63,571 nt of DNA from the IMG/VR virus record IMGVR_UViG_3300025009_000102, positions 1-63,571 of that record, one strand, 5' to 3'. A program made the position numbers and the translations under genes. This DNA comes from a virus (Duplodnaviria; Caudoviricetes). Positions 3,196 to 61,368 of this stretch are shown here, piece after piece. The notes under the pieces are model-generated. The model saw nothing but the letters and a program-made list of their open reading frames with translations, searched no databases and was not told the DNA's origin. Numbering within the stretch: position 1 is the first letter of the stretch; each line of letters begins with the position of its first letter.

Positions 3196-4699
3196 ACCTT
3201 GCAGCCCCCTTGGCCCTCTTTATATTCTGGTGTGTCATCCACCCCTTAAACGATTCGTCTGGCTCAATCGGAGAGACATCCTTCATCCCCCGTGGCCATA
3301 CCTTGAATTTCTCCTGGTACTGATGCGCTGTCCACCCTTCGGCATATCCCTTCTTTATCCTAATCGACTCGCACATACCGTAAAAGATTCGCTTATCCAC
3401 TTCAGTATACTTCTCTTTCTTACCAATTTCAACCAAATCCCCATCGACAGTCTTGACATCTTTCCCATACCTGACCATTGGAGATCCGCACACGGGGCAC
3501 CTCTCCATACCGGTCATCACCGCCCCGCATGCCGAACAAATCACCATACGCTCTTCTTTTTCGCGGGGAATGACATCCCTCCACGCCTGCCTTTTGCCGT
3601 CGAGGCTCCACTCCCTATCGAGTTCAAGAAACCCATGTTCATTGATACACCCTGCGTGATCAAGAATAATACAATCGTGTTTATCTGGTGGGTTTGTACG
3701 AGATCCGCGACCGCCCATCTGAATAAACCTACCCAGACTTTTCGACGGCCTGGCAAGGACGATACAGGACGCCACCGGGAGGTCGGTTCCTTCGCAAAGT
3801 ATACCATGGTTCACGAGAACCTGGAGGTCGCCGTACTGGTACGAGTGAAGGGCCGAATCACGTTCCTCCTTTGGAGTCTTATGGTCAAGATGCTTGACAT
3901 TAACTCCGAAGCTGGCAAATTCATTTGCAATAGCGATACTATGCGCTATGTTGGTGGCGAAGATTATCGTTTTGCGATTAGGACATATTTCCGACCAGTT
4001 CTTATATATATTTCCCACTAGATGCCTTCTATTCATAACATCCCCAAGGAATCCAAGTTCATAGTCATGCCGCTTAGGGTCGATAGGGGCGTCGGTAAGG
4101 TCCGGTGTATATGGTGCGAAATACCTGAACGGTACGAGATATTTCTTCTCAATCAGGTCACCTATGCTGACCGTCTTGACAATCTCGTCGTAATACTCAC
4201 CGAGGCCACGACCATCTGACCGACATGGAGTCGCGGTTAGGCCGATAGTGACGGCCTTGTCACCATAGGCATGCAGAATCTTCAGGTACGAAGGACTGAT
4301 ACTGGTATGACATTCGTCCACAAAGATCAGATCTGCGTCGTGCCACCATTGATTGAAACGTAGCTCATCGATATCCATCCTCCGGATATACGTTTGCATA
4401 CTGGCAATCTGGATATCTGCGGCGAGGTCATTCGGTTCATCAGCCATGATAATACCGCACTGCAGACCGAAATCCTGCAGCGTGTCCCGGATCTGGAAGA
4501 TCAACTCTCTGCGATGCGCAAGGTAAAGAACACGTTTCCCTTTACTGTTTGCAAGCTCTGTTATCATCGCCGCCATAACGGTCTTACCTGAGCCTGTTGG
4601 GGCCATTATTATGATGCGTTTTTTTCCAAGCCCAATATTATACCTTGCTTGGTTGATTGCGTCAAGTTGATATTGCCTTTCGTCGTATTTTTTTATCAT
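3179..4699 (-). CDS. Superfamily 2 DEAD/DEAH helicase with C-terminal Zn finger
   Basis: APTGSGKT, DECH, GLTATP, QMGGRGSR, CxxC...CxxC. Confidence 0.95.
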   Translation of the reverse strand: MIKKYDERQYQLDAINQARYNIGLGKKRIIIMAPTGSGKTVMAAMITELANSKGKRVLYLAHRRELIFQIRDTLQDFGLQCGIIMADEPNDLAADIQIASMQTYIRRMDIDELRFNQWWHDADLIFVDECHTSISPSYLKILHAYGDKAVTIGLTATPCRSDGRGLGEYYDEIVKTVSIGDLIEKKYLVPFRYFAPYTPDLTDAPIDPKRHDYELGFLGDVMNRRHLVGNIYKNWSEICPNRKTIIFATNIAHSIAIANEFASFGVNVKHLDHKTPKEERDSALHSYQYGDLQVLVNHGILCEGTDLPVASCIVLARPSKSLGRFIQMGGRGSRTNPPDKHDCIILDHAGCINEHGFLELDREWSLDGKRQAWRDVIPREKEERMVICSACGAVMTGMERCPVCGSPMVRYGKDVKTVDGDLVEIGKKEKYTEVDKRIFYGMCESIRIKKGYAEGWTAHQYQEKFKVWPRGMKDVSPIEPDESFKGWMTHQNIKRAKGAARYGRQY

Positions 4700-5554: not shown

Positions 5555-5622
5555 ATCATATCACGAAAAAAAAATGAGTCAACGTTTTTTTTGTTGACGA
5601 TTGCCTCACGATCATGTATCTT
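5555..5622. promoter_or_regulatory. Divergent sigma70-type promoters
   Basis: + strand TTGACG(5594)-17-TATCTT; - strand TTGACT(5582)-16-TATGAT; between divergent operons. Confidence 0.7.
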
Positions 5623-5662: not shown

Positions 5663-6121
5663 ATGTCGAAAAATAGCATACAGATCAGCGGTGGGGTGAT
5701 GGACGGTAAGTTCCTTCCCCTCTCTACATATGACTGGAACACAGCGCTCAAGATCTATGAGGGCCAGGAAGTTACGGTAACCATTGGGGCACGCAAGAAG
5801 ATCAGGAGTATCCCCCAGAATAGATACTTGTTCGGCGGACCATACAAGGTCATTGCCGAGGCTACCGGCCAGGACGTTGAGTCTATCCATGCATTCTTTA
5901 AGGATAAGTTCCTCAAGGAATATGACAAGGGGCCTATCCCGACAATTCTGTCTACATCAAAACTTGACACCAAGAAATTTATCTGGTATTATAGGCAAAT
6001 AATCCAGTTCGCGGCAGAGTTTCTTGGGATCTTCATCGCCGAGCCGAACGAAAAGGAAATGTGGGGATCGCTGGTTGAACAAATTGAAAAGGAGAATCGT
6101 CGTGTTCGAACAACTAAGTAA
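5663..6121 (+). CDS. NinB-like recombination protein
   Basis: RS..QN.Y...IA..TG...IH..FK..FL...STSKL..K.F..Y..QI; SD GGAGG before ATG 5663. Confidence 0.65.
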   Translation: MSKNSIQISGGVMDGKFLPLSTYDWNTALKIYEGQEVTVTIGARKKIRSIPQNRYLFGGPYKVIAEATGQDVESIHAFFKDKFLKEYDKGPIPTILSTSKLDTKKFIWYYRQIIQFAAEFLGIFIAEPNEKEMWGSLVEQIEKENRRVRTTK

Positions 6122-16828: not shown

Positions 16829-17086
16829 TTATCTCACAAAGTGAAATGTTGCAGCACCGACCGCCTCAACCTCCCCGCCAGAGGGGATTGCATAGACTTC
16901 ACCAGCTACCATCGTTATTGTTTCGATCACACCGTCAGGAAATGTAAGGGTGAAATCTCCGCCGACAGCACAGCAGAACATCGTGCAAAATTTAGCACCA
17001 TCTGCAGCCGCTATATTCACCTGGCCGGAATGCAGGGGGAATGCCGGGAATAATTGACCATTTGGAAATAAAAATTTTGTACTCAT
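16829..17086 (-). CDS. hypothetical virion-associated protein
   Basis: SD AAGGAG; beta-rich. Confidence 0.7.
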   Translation of the reverse strand: MSTKFLFPNGQLFPAFPLHSGQVNIAAADGAKFCTMFCCAVGGDFTLTFPDGVIETITMVAGEVYAIPSGGEVEAVGAATFHFVR

Positions 17087-17141
17087 TTAATTGCTCCTTG
17101 TGTGTATTACATAGAAAAGATACGTATTCCGGGCAGTGTAA

Positions 17142-20100
17142 TCAATCCCGACCTGTAATTTGGTTGTACCGCTTATTAAACTCCACCTGAATCGCATTGA
17201 TTCTCTCGTCGATTTTCCCGGCATCCTTGCCGTTGGCTTCGATCTGCTTCTTCATTTTATGCAGTTCATCCAAGCGCTTCTCTGTATCCTGGAATTTTCC
17301 GACCAGTTTATATACCGGTTCCCTAACAAGCGAAGGACGCTCCTCCCTGGTGGCGTTCTTGAGTTCGAGGACGAAGGTTTTCATCTCATCCCTGTTCTCT
17401 GAATAAACTCTTCGGTCAATACTCTCTGGCATAACTCCTGCAAACCTCCTAATGATCGGTACGTTCTTGATTGATACATCACCCTCGGCGATTGCGAACG
17501 GCAGGTTGAGGGTATCTTTTACCACCCGACCAGCACCACCGGCAATAGTCTCAAGGACCATTTCTATCGATTCCGGGGAGACGGATATCATCCCCTCCCT
17601 GAACTTACTCCCGCCGGTCATCTCGTTCAGCCACTTCGTGACCTCCCTGGACACCGGGTTGACATCCTTATAGTATCGCTCACTGTCAGGTTGATTCATC
17701 CATGGGTTGAGCGGTGGCATGAGGTTTCCGCCGTGCCACGCCTTGTTCTCGATGATCTGCGCCATCGGGTCAAGCACGGTTGGCATTACCGTCTGGAGTA
17801 ACGTTCCAGCTGCAAGCGGATTGAGGTTGTTCATCACCGTCGTACCCCACCTTAATCCAGCCTCGACCGGGTTTCCGCCGCGAAGTATCGTGGCTATCTC
17901 GTCACCGAATTTAAAGAAGATGTTATACCCGTATGCCATTGGGAACCTGACATGCAATCCATCCCCACCAGGAACAAAGAAGATCATATTACGCTCAAAG
18001 AGTCCGGGGTTTGTCCTCTTCAGCTTGTCGTATCGGCTCTCACCGTCTTCATCGTCGCCACCAGCTGCAGCGCCAAGCAGATTGACCGCTATGCCAAGAC
18101 CAACGATGCCGGTAACAATCTTCTGGACCTTAGCGGATGACGAAACAGCCTGCATCATCCTGATGTTGCCCTGTATTCCTGCGTTCGCGAACATCCATGC
18201 GGCGTTGATTGTCGGGCCTGCCGTTCCGTGTTTTGTGAAGTCGATGGTGAGGTTTGAGGCTATCCTGCCAGCCTGCAGCTTGTCTGTGCCACGATCTACC
18301 AGGGCCTTGTAGGTAGCAACCCTGACACCGTTTTCTACAGACAGATTGACGCTTTCGATGAAATTACCAAGCCTCTTGAAGTTTTCCCGGACCTTGTGTC
18401 CGCCCTCCTTGGTCGCGATATCGTATTCAATCTGTTCGGCCAGTTGCTTCACATCCTCATACGACTGCGCCCACCCCATGACAACACCATGAGCTGCGGC
18501 GTCCTTATAGATTGCACCCCATTGGCCAGACGGCTTGCCACGCTCTTCCCGGTATATCCCAGCGATAGCATGGCGAATGTTGCCAAAAACCTTCATCTGT
18601 AATCCAGACGCCTCAGTTCCTGACATATTCACGAATGCGGTCTGGAGATCTCTCGTGAAGTTTGGCAATGCAAACTCCGGGGTGAGACTGGTGTTGAGCC
18701 TGGCGAGTATCCTGGTGATTACCCTGGACGCCTTGAGTACCGGGCCTGGATCGGTAGTTTGGCGGTTAAGCGCCTCCATAAATCTTACCGCCTGTGGATT
18801 ATCTTTAGCAACTTCAATGATATGCTTAACGCCATCGACCTTGACGTATGTCTGGTATCTGAGGTCGATCTGTTGGTCAGGATAAAACCTGATATTCCCC
18901 TCGTGGTCATGGTACGGTGCCTTGGCCATTTGCGCGATAGACCACAGCTCCTCGTTAGGGTTGGCCGTCACCATGTCATAAAGCGCTCTTTCTGCTTCGA
19001 GTTTCAGCCGCCTCGATAGGGACGCCTGGTATCTGTCGACAATATGGGCGAGGATATTCACGACGGCCTTGGTTGAGCCAGCGGCTACCTGGGCCTGCGG
19101 GGGCTTGCCAAGTGGACCCCTGCCCGACCTTCCGGTTGGTGCCTTGCCCTCGTCGACCTCCTCCCGGAACAACGGGACATGGTACTTGTACCGACTGGAA
19201 ATATTGGTGTACTCTTCGTCGGTAAGGTCGCCAGAAGAATAGGCTATTCTCAGGGCCTCTTCGTTGATCGCCCTGATCTTCCGTGCTGCCTCGTTCATGG
19301 CGGTATGGCCAGCCCACTGTTTAACAACCTTCTTCGCTTCGGCATCGGTCATACCGGACAACTTGCCCTTCCTGGAATCCCATTCATTGACGATAGACTC
19401 GCGCTTGCCGAGACGGTAGTACATATTATCGAGTCGCTTCTGCCAGTAAACGTCGGTGCCCTTGGCTATCTCCGCCGGGGTCCACTGCCTCGCCTGGAGA
19501 TCCGCCGCTATCTGGTCGATCTGTGCCCGCTGACCGGCGATCACTCCGCCCATCCTTTCGAGCATACTTACCAAATTATCGCGCTTCTCATCCAGCGCCC
19601 TGCTGTTCATGACAAAGTCATCTTGGATGTCGCCAAGTTCGCCCTGCCACTGTTCCCTCTCTTTGTCAGTCATCTGGGCCATCAGCGCATCGATGTAGCC
19701 ACGGGCGTTTGCCCTGCGCATCTGCAGGTTTCTCTCTGGGGCATGCTCTGCGTGCAGGAATTCCTGGACATCCTCAAGCTTGAGTTTGGAGTCGACGATA
19801 AATTGGATAAGCGGCTGGTAAACGTCGATGTCAAATCTCTTCACCTCTGCGGCTAGACGCTTACCAACGAGTCCACGGATAGTGGAGTAGTCCCTCGATG
19901 TAGGTTGCGGTCCTATGCCCTGCTGGACCCTCTCAATTGCCTTGTCCTGATTGTAGAGCCAGGTAGCGAACTCGTCAAACCACCCCTGGAAATCAAACTG
20001 TCCCTTTATCCTATCCAGGAAAGAGATCGATTGAGGCTGCGATGGTGCGTGAATAATACTCCCAGGTATCGATGGGTCGTATTTCGTGAGAAGAACGTCC

Positions 20101-23100
20101 TGTGGATCTTCGCCGAATTTAAGCAATCCCTCACCTCTGAGCATAGCCTCCATATGCTGCCACGGCGGGATGCTGCGACGCTCGGCCTGAGACAGTTTTT
20201 GCCTTGCCTGTACCAACCTGGCCGATACCTCCCCAGTGAGCAATCGGTAATCTCGAAACCCAGCGCCCACCGGATCGTCGGTTAGCTGGATATGCTCAAC
20301 AGCCAGCCTATCGCGAATCTGTCTCAGTGAAGAATACGTTGCCCTTTCTTCCTGTGACAGTTGCCCGAATTTTGACTTATTGGCTATCTCGGTCAGTGCG
20401 CCGTTTATCAGGACGATTCTCCTGATCAGCATCTCTGCCTTAATTTGGATCTTACCGTATTGCGTTTCGAAAGAACCGCCCCTCGCGAAGTTTTCTATAT
20501 CCTGAATGATATGCTGAACTTCGTGGATAACTGTTGACTGTATCTCGTCAGGTGACAGGGATTGATTGAGGAGAAGTATTCTCTTCTCGAAATCCCACGC
20601 CCCAAGCTGCCCAGGTTTCGCCTTTATCGGAGTCACCTTGACGGTTTTCAGTTGCGGATAGAGAGAGTAGATGGTTGGGTGCTTGTAGAGCTTCGAGATA
20701 CTGATCGCCTCGCCAGGTTCAAGCTTACCGTATTGATTGACATCAACCTTGCCCTCGGAGTCGTCTATCTCATACTGCCATTCGCCTGGGATCATCTCCC
20801 ACCAACCTGTTTTCCGCCATATCTCTGAGCGATCAATACCATCTTCCTTCATGGCCTTGGCCTCGACGAGGGTGCTTATGCGTTCGTTTTTTGGCACAAA
20901 ACCATTTTTAACTGCCACTATAAACTGGCCAGTCCTGCCAACGAATTCGTATTTCCCTGGATACTTCTCAGTTAAATATGCAATCCCTGCGTCTATATCC
21001 TCTTTCGTAGTAGAGGCGAGAGCGCTCTGACTACCAGCCATCTGGAACTTAACCAGATCATCTTCGCTGAAAAACGTCTCGGTGTTACCCCTGGCTTCCC
21101 TGCGAATAGCCAGGTCGGCGAGGGCCTTGAAATCCTGTTCGTTGAAGATCTTGTACGAAACACCGAACCTGGTAATGAAGTTCTTGATCATGGCGATGAT
21201 ACGGCGAACCAGGCCGATATCCTCGGAGGTGCTTACCATGTAGGCCAGTACTTCCTCAGAATAATTCTCTGGGGTGGTGTCTTCCGGGACTTGCGCCATT
21301 GCTCGACGGATAGCTTCGCCGGTCCTTGACTGCTCATCGGCTCTTCGCATGATGGTCTTTTTGATCATCTGGAATTCGGCGTTACCCTGCATCATCCTGC
21401 CGATATGAGTGCCGATGGCGTGACGGAGGGAACCCCATAACTCGCCATCGGGAATATTCTCTGGAACGAGGATGGTTTTTCCCGGAACCTCTATACCGAT
21501 AGGACGGTTACCCTCACCCATCTCGGCCAGGGAATAGCCCATTCCTTCAAGTTCTTTCATAGCCTCGTCGTTACTCATAAGCACCACCTTGCCACTGCTT
21601 ACCAGGCGTTTTGCTACACCGGCCTGGTCGCCATTGAGCGATCCGAGTAACCTACCGAAAGCCTCGGTTGGCGTCTGTGACACACCGCCGCGCTTAGTCT
21701 GTTGTAGTTTTATGCCGGGTTGTGCCTGTTCTGTCGCGACTCCCGCTTTAAGTGGCGCGAATACTGCAGCGATCACCTGGTTGTTCCTGGTACTCCAATA
21801 TCCAGTATATCCTGAATCCCTGATCAGCCTTTCATAGATGTTCATCTTATCGGCGAAAGGATTACCAGCCCTTTCCTGCGCGGCCTGCGCCATCAGTCCG
21901 TCCGGGTCAGCTTGAAAGTCGTAGAGATTTTCAGCCTTAACCGTAACGTCGTACCGGTACTGACCGAGGCCAACCTCCTTCACGTATCCGCCACCGACAA
22001 CCCCATAGTATGACCTGTCTACCCAGTTTTCCGGATCTCCAGCCTTCCTTCGCGCCTCAGCCCCAGCTATCCCTGTGCTATACTTGGCGGGGTCTATGGT
22101 CTTCAGCCCAGAAATCTTCGACCAGTGCGCGAGCGTAACGTTGCCGTTTTGGTCAACCGGCAGTGTCAATTGCGCCATCTGGAATTTTGGCTCACCTCTT
22201 GACACGATATCGCTAACTTCATCTGCGGACAGGAGGCGATTTACCTTCATCGCACCGCCTATAATCCAGGCACCACCCTGCATCTTATTAGTTTTGAATC
22301 GATAGAATCCACCAGATGGTATCCTCTCTCGAATATCGCGTGTAGAACTGGCGTCAGCTTCCCCCTGGTAGTTGCGATCAGCCGATATTTCCACCTCTGC
22401 CCATACCCTGTCGGCCTGCATCGTCCCATCTTTTTTCATTAAATGTGGCGCGGTCGGGAGAACCCCAGCATGCCAGCCTGGTCTGGTCGCATACCCTTTT
22501 GTCGGGATAAATTCAGCCTGTATCCACCTCCCTATCGGAGTGGGGGTATTCTTCCCGATAAATAAGGGGAATATCTGGCCTGGCGATTTACTGCTGGTCC
22601 TGAATAGTTTGTATGCAGTGATAGATTTTTTCGGTGTTGGTGCCGGTGAGAAGGACTCCTCGCTCGTCACTACGCCACCGCCAAATCCAATTGCATTATC
22701 GCTGTCGAGAGGAACCCTGCTGCCAATATCCTCGCCGGTAAATTTGGCTATGGCTTCGGCTTCTCGCTCTCGCTGGGTAAGCTGTTTTCCGGAATATCGT
22801 TCGAGGACTTTCTCAAAATCTGCCCGCCGATCACGAATCCACGATTGTAGATCGGGTTGTCCTGCGAGGCTTCTGTGATTAATAACCGCCTGCCCTTCCG
22901 GGTCTTCGTTCCAGTTGTGGTCGTATCCATATTCCCCCTGTGCCCAAATAGAATTGGCATCCTTTATTGCAAGTGAATCTAAGTTGTTATCTATAAACGA
23001 TTGGACATTACCCAAGAAGATCGAGTCTTCTATATAGGGAATTCTCGTTTCGTCGTTTCGGAAATTGATAATTGTTATCTCGTTTTCGCCGGTCCTGGTA

Positions 23101-26100
23101 TACCCAGCTCCATCACCAACGAACATACTAAGCCTTTGGAGGATCTTCTCATTATCAGCCGGGGTGATCGGCTTATCGAATGCAACCACAACTCCACGTG
23201 CGTTAGGTCCGCCGCGCACTACCGTACCGGGGTTTTTCGCTGAATGCTCCATGGCGTCGTTCAGGTTCTCAAACTTACCATTCTTGATAACCTTGCCTGA
23301 CGACTCATTCACAACCCGGAACATCTGCTCTTCAACTGCAGCCTTCGACGACATGGCGAATTGGTTCGCCCTGAACCACGGCACCGCATCTTGTTTGAAG
23401 ATATACTGGACAGCTCTTGCGTACATCGACACGTTACTAACCGGGATTTCCCTATTCACCCTGGCCGGGATCAGGTGGCTAATGTTGTTAGGGTTAACAC
23501 CACCGGCATACGCCCCCTCCCCTGGGGTAACGTATGCGATATGGACACCAACCTTATGGGCGAGGGTGTCGGCGTCGTCCTGAACGATAATCCTCCTTGC
23601 CTCGTCGGTGAACATGCGCTTGACCATCGGCGATGCACCAAGGATCTCATGAGAAAGTTTCGTGCTTGGTACTGCCTCCCAGGTAATAACCTGGATATTC
23701 TTTTGAATAAAGTGACTGAAGTCTGCAGCTGACTTGTTGGCGTTCTCTGTCGCTTTCTCGCTCGAAAGATTAAGGGCGTTCTTTCTCCAGATATCCCTAT
23801 GCTTGGCCAGACCTTCTTTCTCAGTTGGGAGAACAAACCTACCCTTATCGTCAACCGATGCAAGCCCAGCGCCTATCGACTCCGCCCACGTATCCGCCTT
23901 CACCTGTGGGTCTTCATACCGGGCCTTCATGGCGCTCCATATTGCCGCCTGCACCTGGAACGGGGTCCAGTCAGTTCCATCCTTTTCATTCATCCTGTCG
24001 GCGAGCCTGACTATTTCTTTTTCTGAAAAAGAATATTTTCCAGTTCCTTTATCGTTCGATGCGACATTCAGATCATACCCGAATGCCCGGAGCATCCATA
24101 GGTCAATGGTTGCCTTCCTACCCATCTCTCGAAGGATGTTGCGGTCCAGTGTCATCTTTGCCACGGAGCCAGGTTTCGACACAATTATTTCGTGTAGCAA
24201 GTTGAGGTAGAACGAGTTGGTCTTCCTCCCCTCGTAAGGGAACGGCTTGTTGTCGTACAGGGCACCAATAGCTTTTTTATCCTGCTCTGCGGTCTTGACC
24301 TTGAAGTCCTCCCTGGGAGTGCCAGAGGTGTACTGAATCCAGGCGCTTATTGCAAACGTCGTATTGGTGTCAACCCTTGCCTGCGGTGAGTATATGGCGA
24401 TCAGCTGAATGAACTTCTCGGCCTTGGCTACGTCTCCCTGCATCAGCTCCATAATTGCGTCTGCAGACTTCTCGTACCAGTACCGACCAACCTTTCCCTC
24501 ATCGACCAGGGAAGCAACGGTATCGCGCATCTTAACCAGATCTTCCGGGGTTTTCACCCAGCTCGGGGCACCCTTGTATTGCCCACCGGCAGTCGTTTCC
24601 GGCTCCCAGTCTTTGTAGTTATCGAGTGTGTCGTCGGCGAAAAGCGGATGTTTCGTGAGGATATCGTAGCCCTCCTTGAGGAGTGGCCTGACCTTCTCAC
24701 CAAACTCCTTGACCATCTCGACGGACCATGTGGCGATATCGCGAACACCCCGCTCAAAGTACGCCCCACCGACAACGATCAGGTCGGACAGTGCTTCTGG
24801 GTCAACACCGGAGTTCAATTGGCCACGTTTCCCTTTCATCCTGGCGCGGGCCTTGTCAACCTTGGCTTTGGTGAATATCTTGTTCCCGCTGAATTCTTCC
24901 TCGTTATTGTTGTTGACTTTCTCTTCTCGGTTTATTAAAGTACTTACTGAAAGAGAACCCTTTTCAGAGGAGGTTGATATGGAAGTGTTTTTAGAATCCG
25001 GTAATGATACGTTTGTTCTGGATACGAAATCAAAGAGAGTTTTTTTGGTGGACGGTGACAGTCGATCTGAGGTCACAGATCCGGCAACTAAGCTTAAAAT
25101 CTTGGCAGAGTCGTTCGCAAGGTCGGAAAGTCCAGACCGGAAGTCGTCGACCGACTGATCACTTTTTCCCCTCGCCAACGAGGCGGCGGCAGCATAGCCA
25201 CGGTCCATGAGATTATTCAGCATGTCGAGCGTGGCTGTCTTTGTTTCTTCGTCAAAATTGTCGTGAGTCAAATGGCCAATGACTTTGTAGAGGCTATGGA
25301 GTTTCTTCTTAGCCTCAATCATTGGTTCGGTATTGAGCTGAAGCTCATAGATATGCCCGTTTTCTGCCCTCATAGTGAGCTGCATATCCTGGTAACCGCC
25401 GATACTTTCCTGGTCATACCTGTTGTTCCATGACAGGACATCGTCCTGCTTCTGGATCTTACTGAAAGCCTCCTTCATGGACTTGTAATCCGGGTACACC
25501 ACGGTTGTAGCAACGATATCGTCGACCATGGAAACATTTCCGCCGTATTTGTTCTTCAGCTTTAACTCGGCGGTTTCCCTCTTTTTCAATCCGTCGGCAA
25601 AAGGACGAAGCTTCACCTTGCCATTGGTTTCATTGGCGAGTTGAGTCACCCTTTCATTAATTCCACCGACCGCCTCCCGCGCATTCTGATACAGGGTATC
25701 CATGTTTTTACTGACAGACTTACTCTGGCGGATCTTCGAAACCGCCTCCACCTCTGCGTGTTTTGCCCCACGGGATGATAATTCTCTGAGGGTGGTATTT
25801 CCATCAATAACCTTCATGGTTCCGTCGTCCCTGACAACAACTTTAAGCGGGCTTCTCTTTGGACCAGCACCCTCTTTCGCCGCATCCATGCGGGTTTGAG
25901 CTGAACTTAGTTTCTCCTGACTTATCTCTTTGTTGATAGGGATAAGCTTCGAAATCTCTACGGTTTGACTATTGGGGTTTTTCTCAAAGTAGTCACTGGA
26001 GGAGCTATCCTCCCGACTCTTCAGTTTAACCTCAGTATCGTTCTCTGGCATTTGCTCCAGTATCGACGCAGACTCCTGGGCGGATCTCCATGGTCGTGAG

Positions 26101-27695
26101 TCAGTTAATAGCGAGGCGAGGTTGTCGCCTATATGCCGAACCGGTTCGTTATTCTCTGGGGTAGACTCATCGACTGGCCTAGGGGCATCCTGGGAGAATG
26201 CGAATTCGAGGTCTTCCTGGCGAGTCTTCCTGGCTATTTCCGCCTGGTTGCTCGCCTCGATATCCCTCTCGATATCAGTGAGTCCCGCTTCCTGGAACAC
26301 CTTGGCGGAGTCGTATGCTGTCCCGCCAGGCGGATCTCCCCCAGGGCCTTCTGGGGTGGCATCGGGCTTACGCACTGCTGACTTGAATTTGGCGATAGCG
26401 TCGTCCAGGCTCTCTGATTCGAGTATTCCTGCGGACGGAGGGGCCGATTCCCCCGGCGGAGGGGTAGGAGGTTGAACCACTTGCGCACCAGGCTGTACCT
26501 GGATTGGAGTCTTGAACGCCTGCGCTGCAGCTGGCAGTTCCGTGACCAGACCACCGGCACCACCAAGAGTTTCCATAGCAACTTCACCGAGTTGAAAGTC
26601 ACCCTTGGCAACCTGTCCAGCCGCTTCAGATGCTGGCTCTTCCAACAATTGCGTTCCGGCGCTCGCGGCGACAGCGCCAAGCTTACTCGGTATTGACCGG
26701 GCCTTGAGCATTTGTTTTGCAAGATCCCGCACTGCTTCTTTGGTTGCACCGGCACCAAGCTGTTGAGTCGCTTCTGAGATCGCCTTGTTGTACGGCTTGG
26801 CAAGAAGTCGTCCTGCAGCAAGGTTCATCGCCGTCGAAACTGCTGCTGTGGCAGTGGCTTTACTCCTCGCTTTCGATATGGTTTCTTCAATGAATTCATC
26901 ATCGGCCAGGAGAGAGATGACGTTATCCTCCGTAGGCTCAAGCTGTCGCTTATTCAACTCTGCAGCGATCATCCCTTTGAATTCAGATCCAGCCTCAATA
27001 CCCCACTGTCCGAGGAAGCTACCAACTGCAGCACCAGCCTTCTTACCAGCACCACCGAGTCCAAATGGCGTTCCGGCAACAGCGCCAACTGCGCTACCAG
27101 CGACCGTACCGGCCACACCAGGAATCATGTTTGCGGCCTGCTCTGCAGTAAGGTATGCAACACCCTTCGGGTTACCAAATGTTTGACCGGCAACAAACTT
27201 CACTGTATCCCACAGCGCTTTGCTCTTACCGGTAAGACCTTCGGCTTTCTCCCAGCTCTTGGTCAGCTCGCCCGCCTCAACCTGTGCTTCCTCAAGTTCC
27301 GGCGGGGTGTAGTCCTTCGACTCCTCCCTGATCCCCTTGGCGAGAATGGCGGCAGTGTTTGCGTCGATCTCCCCAGTGGCAACGTCGTCCATAAGCCTTT
27401 CGGCATCGGCGAGGTTGCGGCCACCCTTCTTGACCAGCTCCCACATATTCTCAAGAAAACCACGGCTCTCCCCCTCGATCTGGGTTTCAATCATCTCGCG
27501 GGTGCTTTGGCCGAACATGCTGTCAAAGTTCTGCTGCAGGGAGAGTTTTTCTTCCTCCTCAGCCTGGGAGTAGGAAGGGTCGCGGACTACCTCTCTCCAG
27601 AAATCGTTGGCGTACTCGGCGAGAACCAGGTTGCGCTGTTCCTCGTTTGCGGACTGGAATTCGGGGAGGGCGATTACATCTTGAAGTGGTATCAT
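17142..27695 (-). CDS. Giant polyvalent (ejected virion) protein: ParB-like, RelA/SpoT-like, helical DUF7178-like, ART-like, LPD23+zincin, LPD38-like domains
   Basis: 3517-aa ORF; VIDGNTT; LKK...DIV...GYQD...ELQLNT...H.LY; IWRKTGW..W.YEIDDS; HEVQH; C-terminal LPD38-like region. Confidence 0.9.
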   Translation of the reverse strand: MIPLQDVIALPEFQSANEEQRNLVLAEYANDFWREVVRDPSYSQAEEEEKLSLQQNFDSMFGQSTREMIETQIEGESRGFLENMWELVKKGGRNLADAERLMDDVATGEIDANTAAILAKGIREESKDYTPPELEEAQVEAGELTKSWEKAEGLTGKSKALWDTVKFVAGQTFGNPKGVAYLTAEQAANMIPGVAGTVAGSAVGAVAGTPFGLGGAGKKAGAAVGSFLGQWGIEAGSEFKGMIAAELNKRQLEPTEDNVISLLADDEFIEETISKARSKATATAAVSTAMNLAAGRLLAKPYNKAISEATQQLGAGATKEAVRDLAKQMLKARSIPSKLGAVAASAGTQLLEEPASEAAGQVAKGDFQLGEVAMETLGGAGGLVTELPAAAQAFKTPIQVQPGAQVVQPPTPPPGESAPPSAGILESESLDDAIAKFKSAVRKPDATPEGPGGDPPGGTAYDSAKVFQEAGLTDIERDIEASNQAEIARKTRQEDLEFAFSQDAPRPVDESTPENNEPVRHIGDNLASLLTDSRPWRSAQESASILEQMPENDTEVKLKSREDSSSSDYFEKNPNSQTVEISKLIPINKEISQEKLSSAQTRMDAAKEGAGPKRSPLKVVVRDDGTMKVIDGNTTLRELSSRGAKHAEVEAVSKIRQSKSVSKNMDTLYQNAREAVGGINERVTQLANETNGKVKLRPFADGLKKRETAELKLKNKYGGNVSMVDDIVATTVVYPDYKSMKEAFSKIQKQDDVLSWNNRYDQESIGGYQDMQLTMRAENGHIYELQLNTEPMIEAKKKLHSLYKVIGHLTHDNFDEETKTATLDMLNNLMDRGYAAAASLARGKSDQSVDDFRSGLSDLANDSAKILSLVAGSVTSDRLSPSTKKTLFDFVSRTNVSLPDSKNTSISTSSEKGSLSVSTLINREEKVNNNNEEEFSGNKIFTKAKVDKARARMKGKRGQLNSGVDPEALSDLIVVGGAYFERGVRDIATWSVEMVKEFGEKVRPLLKEGYDILTKHPLFADDTLDNYKDWEPETTAGGQYKGAPSWVKTPEDLVKMRDTVASLVDEGKVGRYWYEKSADAIMELMQGDVAKAEKFIQLIAIYSPQARVDTNTTFAISAWIQYTSGTPREDFKVKTAEQDKKAIGALYDNKPFPYEGRKTNSFYLNLLHEIIVSKPGSVAKMTLDRNILREMGRKATIDLWMLRAFGYDLNVASNDKGTGKYSFSEKEIVRLADRMNEKDGTDWTPFQVQAAIWSAMKARYEDPQVKADTWAESIGAGLASVDDKGRFVLPTEKEGLAKHRDIWRKNALNLSSEKATENANKSAADFSHFIQKNIQVITWEAVPSTKLSHEILGASPMVKRMFTDEARRIIVQDDADTLAHKVGVHIAYVTPGEGAYAGGVNPNNISHLIPARVNREIPVSNVSMYARAVQYIFKQDAVPWFRANQFAMSSKAAVEEQMFRVVNESSGKVIKNGKFENLNDAMEHSAKNPGTVVRGGPNARGVVVAFDKPITPADNEKILQRLSMFVGDGAGYTRTGENEITIINFRNDETRIPYIEDSIFLGNVQSFIDNNLDSLAIKDANSIWAQGEYGYDHNWNEDPEGQAVINHRSLAGQPDLQSWIRDRRADFEKVLERYSGKQLTQREREAEAIAKFTGEDIGSRVPLDSDNAIGFGGGVVTSEESFSPAPTPKKSITAYKLFRTSSKSPGQIFPLFIGKNTPTPIGRWIQAEFIPTKGYATRPGWHAGVLPTAPHLMKKDGTMQADRVWAEVEISADRNYQGEADASSTRDIRERIPSGGFYRFKTNKMQGGAWIIGGAMKVNRLLSADEVSDIVSRGEPKFQMAQLTLPVDQNGNVTLAHWSKISGLKTIDPAKYSTGIAGAEARRKAGDPENWVDRSYYGVVGGGYVKEVGLGQYRYDVTVKAENLYDFQADPDGLMAQAAQERAGNPFADKMNIYERLIRDSGYTGYWSTRNNQVIAAVFAPLKAGVATEQAQPGIKLQQTKRGGVSQTPTEAFGRLLGSLNGDQAGVAKRLVSSGKVVLMSNDEAMKELEGMGYSLAEMGEGNRPIGIEVPGKTILVPENIPDGELWGSLRHAIGTHIGRMMQGNAEFQMIKKTIMRRADEQSRTGEAIRRAMAQVPEDTTPENYSEEVLAYMVSTSEDIGLVRRIIAMIKNFITRFGVSYKIFNEQDFKALADLAIRREARGNTETFFSEDDLVKFQMAGSQSALASTTKEDIDAGIAYLTEKYPGKYEFVGRTGQFIVAVKNGFVPKNERISTLVEAKAMKEDGIDRSEIWRKTGWWEMIPGEWQYEIDDSEGKVDVNQYGKLEPGEAISISKLYKHPTIYSLYPQLKTVKVTPIKAKPGQLGAWDFEKRILLLNQSLSPDEIQSTVIHEVQHIIQDIENFARGGSFETQYGKIQIKAEMLIRRIVLINGALTEIANKSKFGQLSQEERATYSSLRQIRDRLAVEHIQLTDDPVGAGFRDYRLLTGEVSARLVQARQKLSQAERRSIPPWQHMEAMLRGEGLLKFGEDPQDVLLTKYDPSIPGSIIHAPSQPQSISFLDRIKGQFDFQGWFDEFATWLYNQDKAIERVQQGIGPQPTSRDYSTIRGLVGKRLAAEVKRFDIDVYQPLIQFIVDSKLKLEDVQEFLHAEHAPERNLQMRRANARGYIDALMAQMTDKEREQWQGELGDIQDDFVMNSRALDEKRDNLVSMLERMGGVIAGQRAQIDQIAADLQARQWTPAEIAKGTDVYWQKRLDNMYYRLGKRESIVNEWDSRKGKLSGMTDAEAKKVVKQWAGHTAMNEAARKIRAINEEALRIAYSSGDLTDEEYTNISSRYKYHVPLFREEVDEGKAPTGRSGRGPLGKPPQAQVAAGSTKAVVNILAHIVDRYQASLSRRLKLEAERALYDMVTANPNEELWSIAQMAKAPYHDHEGNIRFYPDQQIDLRYQTYVKVDGVKHIIEVAKDNPQAVRFMEALNRQTTDPGPVLKASRVITRILARLNTSLTPEFALPNFTRDLQTAFVNMSGTEASGLQMKVFGNIRHAIAGIYREERGKPSGQWGAIYKDAAAHGVVMGWAQSYEDVKQLAEQIEYDIATKEGGHKVRENFKRLGNFIESVNLSVENGVRVATYKALVDRGTDKLQAGRIASNLTIDFTKHGTAGPTINAAWMFANAGIQGNIRMMQAVSSSAKVQKIVTGIVGLGIAVNLLGAAAGGDDEDGESRYDKLKRTNPGLFERNMIFFVPGGDGLHVRFPMAYGYNIFFKFGDEIATILRGGNPVEAGLRWGTTVMNNLNPLAAGTLLQTVMPTVLDPMAQIIENKAWHGGNLMPPLNPWMNQPDSERYYKDVNPVSREVTKWLNEMTGGSKFREGMISVSPESIEMVLETIAGGAGRVVKDTLNLPFAIAEGDVSIKNVPIIRRFAGVMPESIDRRVYSENRDEMKTFVLELKNATREERPSLVREPVYKLVGKFQDTEKRLDELHKMKKQIEANGKDAGKIDERINAIQVEFNKRYNQITGRD
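24913..24941 (+). promoter_or_regulatory. Antisense sigma70 promoter inside the giant gene
   Basis: TTGACT-17 bp-TAAAGT, about 40 bp upstream of SD AGGAGGT. Confidence 0.6.
24979..25158 (+). CDS. Nested antisense 59-aa gene (candidate immunity protein for the RelA/SpoT domain)
   Basis: SD AGGAGGT 24968-24974, ATG 24979, own promoter; MEVFLESGNDTFVLDTKSKRVFLVDGDSRSEV... Confidence 0.6.
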   Translation: MEVFLESGNDTFVLDTKSKRVFLVDGDSRSEVTDPATKLKILAESFARSESPDRKSSTD

Positions 27696-28771
27696 TTGAC
27701 CAGTTGACCTTTCTGTGCTATAAGTTGGTTGACATACTGGATAATCTTCTGACCTTCCGGGGTTTGAGCTTCATCGGAGTTCATGAACCCTTGCCTGAAT
27801 GCTTGAAGCTGCGGCATAGTCATTTTGTCGAGTTCCGCCATTTGCTCCGGAGGTAATCCGCCTGGACCAGATTGTTGGCCACCGACCAGGCCAGCCTGTG
27901 GGGCCACGCTTGTGGGGGCTATACCGCCCTGCTGTTGCGCCGGTTGAGCTGCGCCACCAAGTAGGCCAGCCGCCGGTTGCGGTTCTCCCTGCGCCGGTTG
28001 ATCGGTAGGGGCTATCCCTATAGATCCGTCTTGGCCAGCGACCTTGAGCATTGATGCGTATTTCGAAAGGCCTGGCTTTTGTTCGCCGACCATATCGCCT
28101 TCGCCTTCAACGAATTCGTATTCCTCTGGAGTGTCCCTCCCAAGGAACCCCTTCTTCGCTGGTGTCTTGAGTTTCTTGGAGAGCTTCGGGTAGCCGAGTT
28201 GATCTCTCAATCTATTAACCTGATTGATATTCGTTTCGTCTATCCCAGCGTCTTCAAGTTTCGCCAGCTGGTCCTCAAGCTTTGCCTGCTGGTATTCGGA
28301 GAGCGACGACGCCTTACTGGTAACACCGCGCACTGCAGCCTTCTGCGCCTTTTTCTCTGCAGGGGTGAGATCAGGATCTTTCTCGATATCCTCAATAAGC
28401 TTTTGCTTATCGGTCGGGAGTTTATTCTTTGCGGTTTCCAACTGGAGGAGGCCCTGCCGGTCATACGCTGACTTGCGCTTATCTGCAGCTTCCTTACGCT
28501 TTTCTTCTTTCTGCTTGTACTCGTCGTCAACCGCCCGCTTCGATGCATCCCGCACGGCATCACGCCCTTCCTTCTCGACAGCGAATTCCTGTTCCTTATT
28601 CATCCGCCACTCTGCGAGCGCTTTCTCCCTGGCGAAACGAGCATCTTCCCGCCTCTGCTCCTGGGCGGCAAGCACCTTCTTGTCCTCAAGATCCTGCTGA
28701 CGCTTGATGTAGGTGTTTCCGATATTTGCCGCTTCGCCCAAAAGACCGGCCCATGCAAGCTTACTGGCCAT
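27692..28771 (-). CDS. Putative DNA ejection/internal virion protein
   Basis: Start MASKLAWAG at a TAATATG junction; coiled-coil and Q/P/G-rich; position before the giant gene. Confidence 0.7.
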   Translation of the reverse strand: MASKLAWAGLLGEAANIGNTYIKRQQDLEDKKVLAAQEQRREDARFAREKALAEWRMNKEQEFAVEKEGRDAVRDASKRAVDDEYKQKEEKRKEAADKRKSAYDRQGLLQLETAKNKLPTDKQKLIEDIEKDPDLTPAEKKAQKAAVRGVTSKASSLSEYQQAKLEDQLAKLEDAGIDETNINQVNRLRDQLGYPKLSKKLKTPAKKGFLGRDTPEEYEFVEGEGDMVGEQKPGLSKYASMLKVAGQDGSIGIAPTDQPAQGEPQPAAGLLGGAAQPAQQQGGIAPTSVAPQAGLVGGQQSGPGGLPPEQMAELDKMTMPQLQAFRQGFMNSDEAQTPEGQKIIQYVNQLIAQKGQLVK

Positions 28772-31788: not shown

Positions 31789-34700
31789 GTCCAGCTCAGT
31801 GTGATGCCAGCGACTGCGGCGACGGTGTTGAGTTGTGATTTATACCTGGTCATCAGGGCGGAGATCGCATCGGCCTTATTTAAGACATTGGTATCACGGA
31901 GAAGCCTCTCGATACTGCCGGTAAGCTCCTGCCCCATAACTCCTGCGGACTGCATAAGGGCCTGGGTTTCAGCGCTGTCAAGATTTGCGCCCTGCAAGTA
32001 GTCCTTCCACTCGTTTTCGAGTTGGATCTGCTGCATCTTGGCGCTGTCGGAGATCTTCTGTAGCGCCTGCTGACCCTGTTGTGACTGGTATTCGAGAGAT
32101 CCGGTAATGAGAGCGTTGTTCTCGAATTTCCTTCTTTCGATTTCGGCCAGTTGGTTATTGGTTGATTGATCCAAGGAGGTCTTCTGCTTCTGCTGCGCCA
32201 GGTTGCCGTAAAGCTGGGCATCGGGGGTGGCAATATTCCTGGCCTCTTGAATGGTTGCCGCTGTTCCCGCCTGCAATGCTCCTGAAGAATTGAGCATGCC
32301 CTTTGCCTGGTGTCCCATCTCGGCTGTGGCCCTGGCTGCTTGAAGGAGCGGGTTATCCTCTTTTATGAGATTGGTAACCCTGCCTTCTATAGTAGCAAGT
32401 CCAGGTTTGATAAACGTTTCGTCAGCTGCGACGTTGGTTCCCTGCGCCTGGGTCAACTGCCCCTTTGGAAGGGTGTAGCCTGGAACTTGATTAAAATAAT
32501 TTGTGTCTGCCATGCTGACTCCCCTTATATGGAAATTCTTTACTCTTCGATTATAAATTATATTCCCTGATTCATAGAAAGTCAACGAATCACCAGGCGT
32601 TTGCTCTTCCTCTGCAGGGGTTATTGACGATGGTTCCAATTGCTGCTCATCCTCCACTGGAGGCGTTGGTGACAGTTCCAGCTGTGTCTCCTCCTGTACT
32701 GGTACGGACGGATGGGTTCTTGCGTACAAATCAGCCTCGCGGTCAAGGAGTGCCTGCTTGGTGGCGTCCGCCTTTTCCTCCCACCATAGTTTCGATCCAG
32801 GTGCCCCGGATGCATCGAATGACTCTTGTGTCTCACCTGGTAGGGCGTCCCTCTGCTGGTATCCAGTGGCGTCCTGGTATATGATCTTCACTACTCCTGA
32901 TGAAACGGGTTCGGCTGGAGGCTCTGTCGGTGGTGGGTTAATTACTGAGGGAATAGGAACCTCATATCCAGTTTCTTCCTGTGGCAAATCTGGTGCGGCT
33001 TCGTCAGGAATAACCGGCGGGCCAGTAGGATCTTCTACCGCTGGAATAATCTCGTCTGGCGTGATCTCTACAGGCTCTATCGGTGGTACATCTGGTGCGG
33101 CTTCGTCTGGAGAAACTGGTGGACCAGTCGGTTCTTCTACTGGAGGCTCCTCAGCTGGGGTAACCACTTCCGGGACATCCTCAATCGGTGTTGCTGGCGT
33201 CACATCCCCAGGAACGTTAGGCTCTGGTGTTGGTGTGATATCAGGCGTAACCGGGTCTGGGGCGTCGGTTGGCCCTTGCGGAGTGACTGGGTCTGGTATA
33301 TCGCCGGTATTCGTTGTTGGTGTCGGATCAGTGGTGTCTACAGGCGTTGGCGCTTCAGTCGGCGGCGGAGTCTCTACCGGTGGGGGTGTTTCTTCTGGTG
33401 TTGGGGCCTCGACTGGTGGTGGGGGTTCTTCTGGCGGAGGAGGTTCTTCGACGGGTGGTGGCTCCTCTGGTATTTGAGCCGGGGGATCTTCCTGGACCGG
33501 TGTATTTGCTGGTGGTATTTCTACTGGTACGACAAACTCGGCCAATTCCCCTTCATAGAAACCTCTCTTTCCATCCCATGGCGCGAACCAATCGAAGCCG
33601 CCGGTCATAAAGAGAGATGCCTTGGCCTCGGTGATTGCGTCTAAACGTCTGCGATATTCAGCCTGCCTCCATGTCTCATCATGAGCCTGCCTCATCACAT
33701 TGTAATTCCACCGACTAAGAGCTGATGCTGCCGCCGCTAGATACTTCTTGGTATTGTACTCTCGCTGAAATTTTTCTGACGAAGTCTCGTAATCTATTTT
33801 TACTGAACCTGGCGCAGTTGGAAGAACGCGATATCTTAGGATGGCGTTGTCGCGCCTCAGTGTAAGTTCTCTTTTTTGCTTGTATAATCTATCGGATATG
33901 GAGGTGAGGAATTTATATTCAGCGCTTTGCCACACCTTCTTTGAGGCCTCATATCTGGCGTTTGCCATTTCCGTTGTACTGCCAACGAATTGAGCTGTAG
34001 CCGCATCAACCATCCGCTTCTTCTCGGCTGATAACATAGCGATAGGGTCGTTAATCGACTGCATGCTTGCTGCAGTTTCGTCAATAAACCTCGGCGTAGG
34101 GTCGTCATTGGGGATTACCGATGATGACACGGTCATCGCAGCAATAGTGGCCTTTATCGCACTAATATTCTCCCCCGCCCTAACAAAGGCCAGCCTGGCG
34201 GCATCACGTTCCGCCTTCAGCCTGGCCGATTCCTGGTAGTAGTATTGCGTTGCTGCTGCCCACTCAGGGCTTATAGTGGTGAAGCTGCGAAGGTACGTAG
34301 ACTGCTGGAGATTGAAAGCGTACAGGGCGTCCATGGCCGATCTCGCCTTAGCTCCTGCATCGCTCAGTGCCTGTTGTGCTGCTGGTAATTGCGTCATATA
34401 CGCATCGGCCCTGGCCTTCTCAAGCTCTGCGGTTTGGGTCGCATTCATTGCCACAGTCGAACTACCTGGATCGAAGGTATGGGCATATACCTGCTCCATA
34501 GCCAACGTTTTCTCAGCGTTTAATCCCCTTAATTCCTGAGTAAGGTTTGAATTTATTACATGATATGGCTGGATAAGCTCTTCTCTTCGCCTATCAATAG
34601 GAGCTGTTAGGTGGGCGTATTCAACACTGGTGATGGAACGGCTGAGGTACTGCTGAAAATATACTGCCTTTTGGGCGGTGATTGCCCTGTATTCATCGGA

Positions 34701-54541: not shown

Positions 54542-54570
54542 ACCTTACACCCTGGCTGGATTGATGTCAA
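54542..54570 (-). promoter_or_regulatory. Strong sigma70-type promoter (early class)
   Basis: TTGACA-17-TAAGGT; shares GGGTGTAAGGT with the promoter at 61340. Confidence 0.75.
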
Positions 54571-61339: not shown

Positions 61340-61368
61340 TTGACCTGGCCGGACGCCGGGTGTAAGGT
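61340..61368 (+). promoter_or_regulatory. Early promoter
   Basis: T-tract, then TTGACC-17-TAAGGT. Confidence 0.75.

Follow-up and report, generated by a model that had tools for sequence, protein, structure and literature searches.

The gene for a giant polyvalent virion protein in the IMG/VR virus record IMGVR_UViG_3300025009_000102 (Duplodnaviria; Caudoviricetes), which we analyzed over its full 63,571 nucleotides (hereafter the window), probably contains a second, real protein gene on its opposite strand, coupled to a module of the giant protein that carries a RelA/SpoT-like (RSH) domain. Comparison with related sequences indicates that this antisense cassette, which consists of a promoter, a Shine-Dalgarno (SD) sequence and a short open reading frame (ORF), is conserved, that it is under antisense-type constraint and that it is inherited together with the RSH module. 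More tentatively, the encoded protein of 59 amino acids (aa) may be the antidote or immunity protein of the RSH domain, a proposal that draws on its position, on co-inheritance and, by analogy, on the general rule that toxic RSH domains have partners.

A conserved antisense cassette

The cassette lies on the + strand at 24913-25158, inside the single 3517-codon ORF of the giant protein (17142-27695, - strand). Its -35 hexamer TTGACT (24913-24918) is followed 17 nt on by the -10 hexamer TAAAGT (24936-24941), in keeping with the TTGACA- and TATAAT-like elements, 16-18 nt apart, of sigma-70-type promoters. The SD, AGGAGGT (24968-24974), stands 4 nt ahead of an ATG at 24979 that opens an ORF of 59 codons (P0002; 24979-25158 including the TGA stop codon at 25156-25158), and promoter, SD and start are all wholly within the opposite-strand gene. 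By translation, the bases of the ORF (24981-25157, - strand) encode aa 847-905 of the giant protein, a segment referred to below as the extension. This stretch of the + strand would amount to a self-contained small gene, with a host-type sigma-70 promoter, a 37-nt leader containing the SD and 59 codons. An initial annotation of the window had listed the promoter, the SD and the ORF inside the giant virion gene, and each of them is present as it described.

DNA was available for four sequences: the window; two IMG/VR contigs (L002 and L003), whose giant proteins are 56% identical overall to that of the window; and L011, which encodes a remote homologue (P0024, 4659 aa) that resembles the giant protein in this module alone, at ~30% identity, and arranges its domains in another order. 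All four carry the full cassette (promoter pattern, SD, ATG and an ORF of at least 55 codons) at the homologous place; an antisense SD and ORF behind the RSH domain of other polyvalent proteins, which the initial annotation had suggested looking for, are present in L002, L003 and L011. As a null model we redrew synonymous codons 40,000 times with the sense protein held fixed, using gene-wide or local codon usage, and scored an ATG within 4 codons, an ORF of at least 55 codons, an SD of at least 4 bases and the pattern TTGAC-N18-TAnnnT. The probability of the full cassette was 0.005-0.011 per sequence with gene-wide usage and 0.005-0.024 with local usage, against an observed four of four. The window is the discovery case; without it three replicates remain, with L011 independent of the trio formed by the window, L002 and L003.

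Each part of the cassette recurs in recognizable form. The promoters read TTGACT-17-TATAGT in L002, TTGACA-17-TAAAAT in L003 and TTGACA-17-TACCTT in L011, with consensus matches of 9/12 in the window, 10/12 in L002 and 11/12 in L003; TTGAC (5/6 positions of the -35) is invariant and the spacer is 17 nt long in all four sequences. Among the three close sequences, five of six positions are invariant in the -35, four of six, at key positions, in the -10, and 6 of 17 in the spacer. From the -10 to the ATG the distance is 37 nt in the window, L002 and L003 and 34 nt in L011. The SD reads AGGAGGT in the window, GAGGAGGT in L002, AAGGGGGT in L003 and GGAGG in L011, and it is kept despite differing sense residues opposite (TSS, TSS, DPL and GAS, in the same order); the ORFs span 59, 59, 63 and 63 codons. 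The -35 also covers the third position of a sense Val codon that is GTC in all four sequences, GTC making up 0.27-0.34 of Val codons. Third positions that are synonymous in both frames are near saturation in this segment among the close relatives (p-distance 0.73).

An open antisense frame is by itself not evidence for a gene. The frame pairs third codon positions with sense third positions, and a stop in it needs a sense Tyr, His or Gln; such residues are missing from aa 848-959, and the frame is therefore open for 160 codons (24676-25158). Across the homologues, the three residues make up 4.0% of the extension (57/1439 residues) compared with 7.9% of whole proteins, so that they are about two-fold depleted rather than absent. 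Promoter-like sites are no more frequent than chance at 17000-28000 (11 versus 8.3 expected from shuffles), but only this one of the 11 in the giant gene is promoter-like at the aligned place in both L002 and L003. The giant gene contains 127 antisense start/ORF combinations of at least 50 codons, one other of which is likewise preceded by a 7-mer SD. Where all three close sequences cover the gene there are 104 combinations. Both start and stop of 13 of these (4-5 distinct ORFs) are retained in L002 and L003, and only this ATG has an SD in all three close sequences. The 14-kb gene of L011 holds four antisense ATG ORFs of at least 50 codons with an SD of at least 5 bases, one of them at the homologous spot.

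Other antisense ORFs give a picture of the background. One at 26481 (+), in the other open antisense frame, has a TTG start, 71 codons and a 7-mer SD (TAGGAGGT); it is not among the ORFs that keep start and stop in both relatives. Those at 17227, 17506 and 21082 (+; 53-59 codons, TTG or GTG starts, without an SD) keep start and stop in both close relatives and, lying in well-conserved parts of the gene, can serve as likely examples of passive conservation. The pattern TTGAC-N18-TAnnnT occurs eight times in the window compared with 1.5 expected, a count reached by 0 of 100 shuffles, and this enrichment fits a phage that uses host-type promoters. Its other copies are at 4637-4665 (-), 5594-5622 (+), 5964-5992 (+), 19950-19978 (-), 32557-32585 (-), 54542-54570 (-) and 61340-61368 (+), several of them within long ORFs; the copy at 19950-19978, which lies within the giant gene and points in its sense direction, has no preserved counterpart in L002 or L003. 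A conserved intrinsic terminator behind the antisense ORF was considered and rejected: a weak terminator-like hairpin at 25142-25156 (+; 5 pairs and a short T run), which overlaps the ORF stop codon, is not kept in L002 or L003.

Searches of viral contigs yielded three useful loci (L002, L003/L004 and L011), and metagenome contigs returned the same two contigs. A tblastn search of GenBank phages and plasmids gave no extension-bearing match, blastn against phages found nothing, the records with L001, L012 and L013 hold no module, and genome-contig searches returned only RSH toxin-like ORFs that lack the extension (L014-L017, described below). Contigs from four sequencing runs (X5, X7, X8 and X10) cover the region in short, low-depth pieces, with most listed variants at third codon positions; no RNA run is listed for 24400-25700. 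Within these limits of length and depth, the listed variants inside the ORF (24999 and 25005) are synonymous in both frames, and a further one, at 24928 in the promoter spacer, replaces a sense Arg with Gln. One contig of X5 matches the window at 24967-25064 only (98 nt, 14 differences), and its loose ends read L002-like, so an L002-like phage co-occurs with the phage of the window in that run.

The frame that carries the constraint

We compared the two readings across 26 sense proteins (that of the window and 25 cluster representatives) by scoring with BLOSUM62 those residue pairs that fall in different codon boxes, a comparison made possible by the fact that the first two letters of each antisense codon are set by the first two of one sense codon. 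In the RSH core (aa 690-840), the scores were -0.68 for sense and -1.17 for antisense, a difference of -0.49 (95% confidence interval (CI), -0.66 to -0.32), with 45 of 137 columns favoring antisense. The extension (aa 847-905) showed the reverse, with -1.24 for sense, -0.67 for antisense, a difference of +0.57 (95% CI, 0.33 to 0.83) and 39 of 48 columns favoring antisense. Just beyond it, aa 906-935 have a similar composition but are unconserved and give no frame signal (sense, -1.13; antisense, -1.26; difference, -0.13; 95% CI, -0.39 to 0.14; 12 of 28 columns). Replacements in the extension are thus conservative when read antisense and non-conservative when read sense, as in columns where sense T/I/M corresponds to antisense V/I/M, K/N to F/L, or N/K/Y to F/L/Y. 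A cruder count goes in the same direction: replacements that keep sense codon position 1 have a share of 0.61 in the extension versus 0.45 in the core.

The sense reading of the extension is itself widespread. Among the best 150 listed HMMER matches, 27 extend over profile positions 188-250 (aa 847-905), and the 26 aligned homologues share a recognizable Ser/Thr/Lys-rich pattern there; because remote homologues share it, the segment is not a lineage-specific linker. The stretch conserved past the RSH fold is bounded by the antisense stop (opposite Q847, just after the last RSH helix) and the antisense start (opposite I906), and BLASTP alignments of the giant protein end at aa 904-915, the position of the antisense start codon, in 9 of 17 remote polyvalent proteins. 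Two ENA fragments from contigs of 644 and 562 bp (P0029, 142 aa; P0095, 132 aa) start within the last helix of the RSH domain and span the extension; at 34-38% identity to the window, they are its closest outgroup there.

Taken with the cassette null, this substitution pattern documents conservation beyond what the host frame imposes, although the direct third-position test described below was not significant; the per-frame analysis of selection proposed in the initial annotation therefore came out in favor of the antisense frame in the 26-protein comparison and not at third positions. Across aa 847-905 the opposite strand appears, from these comparisons, to carry protein-level constraint, as had been proposed. 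The accompanying description of the segment as a Ser/Thr/Asn-rich linker fails insofar as the segment is not confined to one lineage. Recurrence of the cassette, antisense-type replacements and the fold confidence of the peptide together argue that the segment is not a free linker. The constrained product would be the small protein, with the giant-protein reading needing only to stay open and join the RSH domain to the next one.

Predicted structure and relatives of the peptide

AlphaFold2 models of the peptide, built from an alignment of three sequences, reached a mean predicted local distance difference test (pLDDT) score of 81.3 (five models, 78.8-81.3), with 87-93 in ten-residue blocks over residues 1-40. 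The predicted fold comprises strands at residues 2-7, 10-15, 20-25 and 28-32, followed by a helix at 35-49 and a tail without order. Invariance is confined to the alternating hydrophobic residues of the strands, with variable loops and tail. At equal alignment depth, the sense segment aa 847-905 scored 44-60.

Database searches brought up no relatives of the peptide other than the identical L002 and L003 ORFs, as called in two ENA assemblies (longest contigs, 5.3 and 7.4 kb). It matched no family in Pfam, PHROG or PADLOC and no chain in PDB sequences below an E value of 0.27, and a fold search of PDB and BFVD gave no match at E <=0.001. In the ESM Atlas, SUKH-type clusters came up at 0.89-0.90 only and with few shared features, which makes them a lead and nothing further. 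Complex prediction with the RSH core (A6 residues 1-188) and the peptide (A7) scored 0.01 against a mark of 0.32; run without controls, it speaks neither for nor against binding.

A Tas1-like RSH domain

Directly ahead of the extension lies a Tas1/RelA-SpoT-like nucleotidyltransferase core (~aa 690-845; 25161-25628, - strand), which the initial annotation had recognized as RelA/SpoT-like. A PDB sequence search matched this region to Tas1 (6ox6_A) at E 0.001 over 170 residues and to SaSAS (8vx3) at E 0.08. Foldseek ranked SAS1, Tas1, RelP and Rel highest, at E ~3e-4, and gave 12 PDB matches at E <=0.001, the first 11 listed being B. subtilis SAS1, Tas1 and S. aureus SAS2. Similarity to solved RSH synthetases is therefore seen in both sequence and fold, the latter from an AlphaFold2 model with a mean pLDDT of just 58.2. 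The Pfam family PF04607 (RelA_SpoT) scored 23.6 bits (E 6.6e-5), under its gathering cut-off of 27 bits; of 10 HMMER relatives scanned, one passes (P0036, 40.3 bits), one is sub-threshold and eight are without a match. By sequence the domain is a divergent branch, for which a profile of the region recovered 1433 relatives at E <=0.001. Strings resembling GY..., E.Q and H..YK are visible in the translation, which we take to be the catalytic motifs.

RelA/SpoT domains in polyvalent proteins have been recorded as predicted effectors of host shutdown (Iyer et al. 2017, PMC5512222), and the available text of that account predicts that they elicit an alarmone-like response, with host transcription and translation shut down or altered as the outcome. 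Toxic small alarmone synthetases are described, in the accessible parts of two further sources, from toxin-antitoxin modules and secretion systems (PMC11782079, PMC7229694), and the title of PDB entry 6ox6 names Tas1 in complex with its immunity protein. Related RSH domains also end ORFs in bacterial genomes: three from Marinomonas (L015, L016 and L017) and one from a cyanobacterial metagenome-assembled genome (L014) have stop-to-stop ORFs of 325-409 codons that stop shortly after the domain, without a counterpart of aa 847-905. In sequence, these look like C-terminal RSH domains of the polymorphic-toxin type.

What the antisense protein may do

The RSH domain and the antisense ORF are co-inherited, which is the part of the earlier one-module proposal that the alignments support. 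Besides ending near the antisense start codon, BLASTP alignments with remote homologues begin at aa 545-566 in 8 of 17 proteins, around the start of a conserved N-terminal part of the module (~aa 561-689; 25629-26015, - strand), which the initial annotation described as putatively ParB-like. This N-terminal part, the RSH domain and the embedded antisense gene would be inherited and shuffled as one block among polyvalent proteins. Toxic RSH domains generally come with dedicated partners, in the consulted portions of PMC11782079 and PMC7229694 and in the title of 6ox6, and the proposed antidote role draws on this rule together with position and co-inheritance.

Under this proposal, host RNA polymerase could transcribe the small gene upon genome entry, and the giant protein, if it behaves like other polyvalent proteins in the available text of PMC5512222, would be packaged into the virion and injected. 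The small protein would most likely neutralize or time the Tas1-like domain, whether of the injected copy, of new copies or of a superinfecting relative. The complete scenario is speculative, and we advance it as a possibility only: an antidote gene on the opposite strand, placed after an internal Tas1-like effector and expressed by the host from the incoming genome, would allow the effector to act briefly and then be switched off, or would protect kin and lysogens; the linker would be a passive back-reading of the antidote gene, and toxin and antidote would shuffle as one in-frame block.

A real antisense protein that does not act on the RSH domain is about as likely as the antidote role, and like it can be put forward only tentatively. 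Such a protein might be an early regulator, a superinfection-exclusion or host-takeover factor or an assembly factor, encoded at a junction that tolerates a second reading. All evidence for a real gene applies equally here; the peptide has no similarity to known antitoxin or immunity families, and its host-type promoter, being one of eight such motifs in the window, may simply belong to an early or moron-like gene. An unrelated role fits less well with the placement of the ORF, which directly follows this RSH family in 4/4 sequences with DNA and leaves its sense footprint in 27 of the best 150 listed matches, with alignment boundaries at which domain and ORF move together, or with the bacterial RSH relatives (L014-L017), which end right after the domain and lack the extension.

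Several observations weigh against a real antisense gene or against its serving the RSH domain. As to function, a late-made virion protein might not require an antidote, and position is the only tie between the peptide and the domain. The antisense frame is open by default, extending upstream of the ATG for 101 codons in the window, 161 in L002 and 80 in L003, and an ATG within 4 codons together with an ORF of at least 55 codons has a probability of 0.36-0.48 given the sense protein and codon usage. Retention of start and stop in L002 and L003 is shared by three to four further antisense ORFs of the gene, and L011, the sole remote homologue with DNA, has a poor -10 (TACCTT). The frame test omits Ser, Leu and Arg and draws on sequences that lack phylogenetic independence. 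Columns 870, 879 and 887 (L/F/V/I) are conserved in a sense manner, so the sense reading may have some constraint of its own and not be wholly passive. Database searches found no homologue of the peptide outside these phages, and its ESM Atlas recognition value of 1994 is below the 2300 reached by most known families.

The direct third-position test also belongs on this side. Changes that are silent in sense and alter the antisense protein (SN), relative to those silent in both frames (SS), gave a ratio of 0.40 (SN, 6/21.3 sites; SS, 34/46.7), compared with a gene median of 0.86, but 13% of 511 windows were as low and the result is not significant. Sense-altering, antisense-silent changes (NS) at third positions number 8 per 17.7 sites here versus 69 per 1007 gene-wide. 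From this, in favor of the antisense gene, the sense frame looks relaxed at third codon positions in the segment, but a merely diverged segment at aa 1466-1540 shows the same. The NS/SN ratio, for which the extension ranks in the top 2.7%, was rejected as a statistic: its other peak is that diverged segment, where L002 and L003 are identical.

Some of these points would suit a by-product of a conserved sense peptide, in which aa 847-905 form a Ser/Thr/Lys-rich motif for processing, packaging or regulation and the antisense strings follow from the motif and the default-open frame. The sense motif is indeed recognizable in remote homologues, with some columns conserved as sense hydrophobics, the ATG and open ORF have an appreciable probability given the sense protein, the ESM Atlas value is low and the third-position ratio is not significant. 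We nevertheless consider this explanation unlikely, as the full cassette is improbable in any one sequence yet occurs in 4/4, the SD survives changes in the sense residues opposite, the replacements score as conservative in antisense but not in sense (the reverse of the RSH core), and pLDDT is low for the sense segment and high for the antisense peptide.

Antisense promoters inside phage genes are known, lambda paQ being one example, and the cassette is like paQ in setting a host-type promoter against a phage gene, here followed by a conserved SD, an ATG and an ORF of 59-63 codons. An RNA product, with a convergent transcript that damps or times the giant late gene and an ORF that is untranslated or irrelevant, would agree with the conserved hexamers, 17-nt spacing and leader length of 37 nt and with everything nearby on the + strand being antisense to late genes, but it is improbable given an SD and ATG conserved at a fixed distance, a conserved ORF length (59, 59, 63 and 63 codons), a protein-level substitution pattern that favors the antisense frame across 26 homologues and the lack of a conserved terminator, the weak hairpin at 25142-25156 not being kept in L002 or L003.

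The host gene and its phage

The window, a 63.6-kb virus record, carries a terminase, a portal-like gene, a helicase and a ParB gene, and its phage is known from metagenomes only (groundwater-type runs). The giant gene lies in the late or structural block, downstream of the terminase and the portal-like gene. Its 3517-aa product matches Pfam LPD38 (113.3 bits), LPD23 (51.8 bits) and DUF7178 (27.5 bits), all at or above cut-off, and has the features of a large polyvalent protein: it is very long and multidomain, and it carries LPD domains in a phage. A PHROG match to DarB-like antirestriction proteins spans aa 596-1008, and Pfam gave no match over ~aa 561-689.

Elsewhere in the gene, L002 and L003 are exactly identical over the counterpart of 23076-23300 (~aa 1466-1540), where the window protein is highly diverged, with indels; outside that counterpart they differ at ~30% of DNA positions. 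This pattern suggests that these phages exchange segments of the giant gene in a mosaic fashion.

Relation to known systems

The arrangement resembles toxSAS pairs and Tas1 with its immunity protein (6ox6) in that the RSH fold is closest to Tas1 and SAS1 and has beside it a small, fast-evolving gene with which it is co-inherited. It departs from them in that the putative partner is not an operon neighbor but is antisense, within the reading frame of the toxin itself and with its own promoter; in that the toxin-like part is an internal domain of a 3517-aa virion protein; and in that the peptide has no sequence or fold similarity to solved chains. The likeness to toxin-antidote or effector-immunity pairs is thus one of analogy. 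As a giant protein with LPD38, LPD23 and a RelA/SpoT-like domain, the host protein agrees with the polyvalent proteins of phages and conjugative elements in the available text of PMC5512222, a text that mentions neither a partner or immunity protein for RelA/SpoT nor an embedded antisense gene.

Bacterial embedded antisense genes in E. coli O157:H7 and Pseudomonas aeruginosa offer a second comparison (PMC9927249, PMC8850804, PMC7457138). As presented in the accessible portions of these sources, they too are ORFs wholly inside an opposite-strand gene with promoter- and SD-like signals of their own. The bacterial cases rest on expression data, those of Pseudomonas at least being called evolutionarily novel there, whereas the phage case is known from sequence comparison; unlike the bacterial cases so described, the phage cassette is conserved down to ~30% sense identity and its embedded frame, rather than that of the host gene, appears constrained. 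The text returned by a full-text literature search did not describe any antisense gene located within the gene of a polyvalent protein.

If the antisense gene is real, it would be a rare case in which the embedded antisense frame, and not the annotated host frame, is under protein-level constraint, and this across sense proteins that are only ~30% identical. With a cassette of 250 bp and an RSH domain of ~190 aa, the claim is directly testable. It would also draw attention to a class of small genes whose position within long ORFs leads gene callers to overlook them; this ORF was called in just two assemblies of the collection (longest contigs, 5.3 and 7.4 kb). For the polyvalent proteins themselves, it would mean that a toxin-like domain locked in a giant polyprotein could keep a dedicated partner gene with its reading frame intact.

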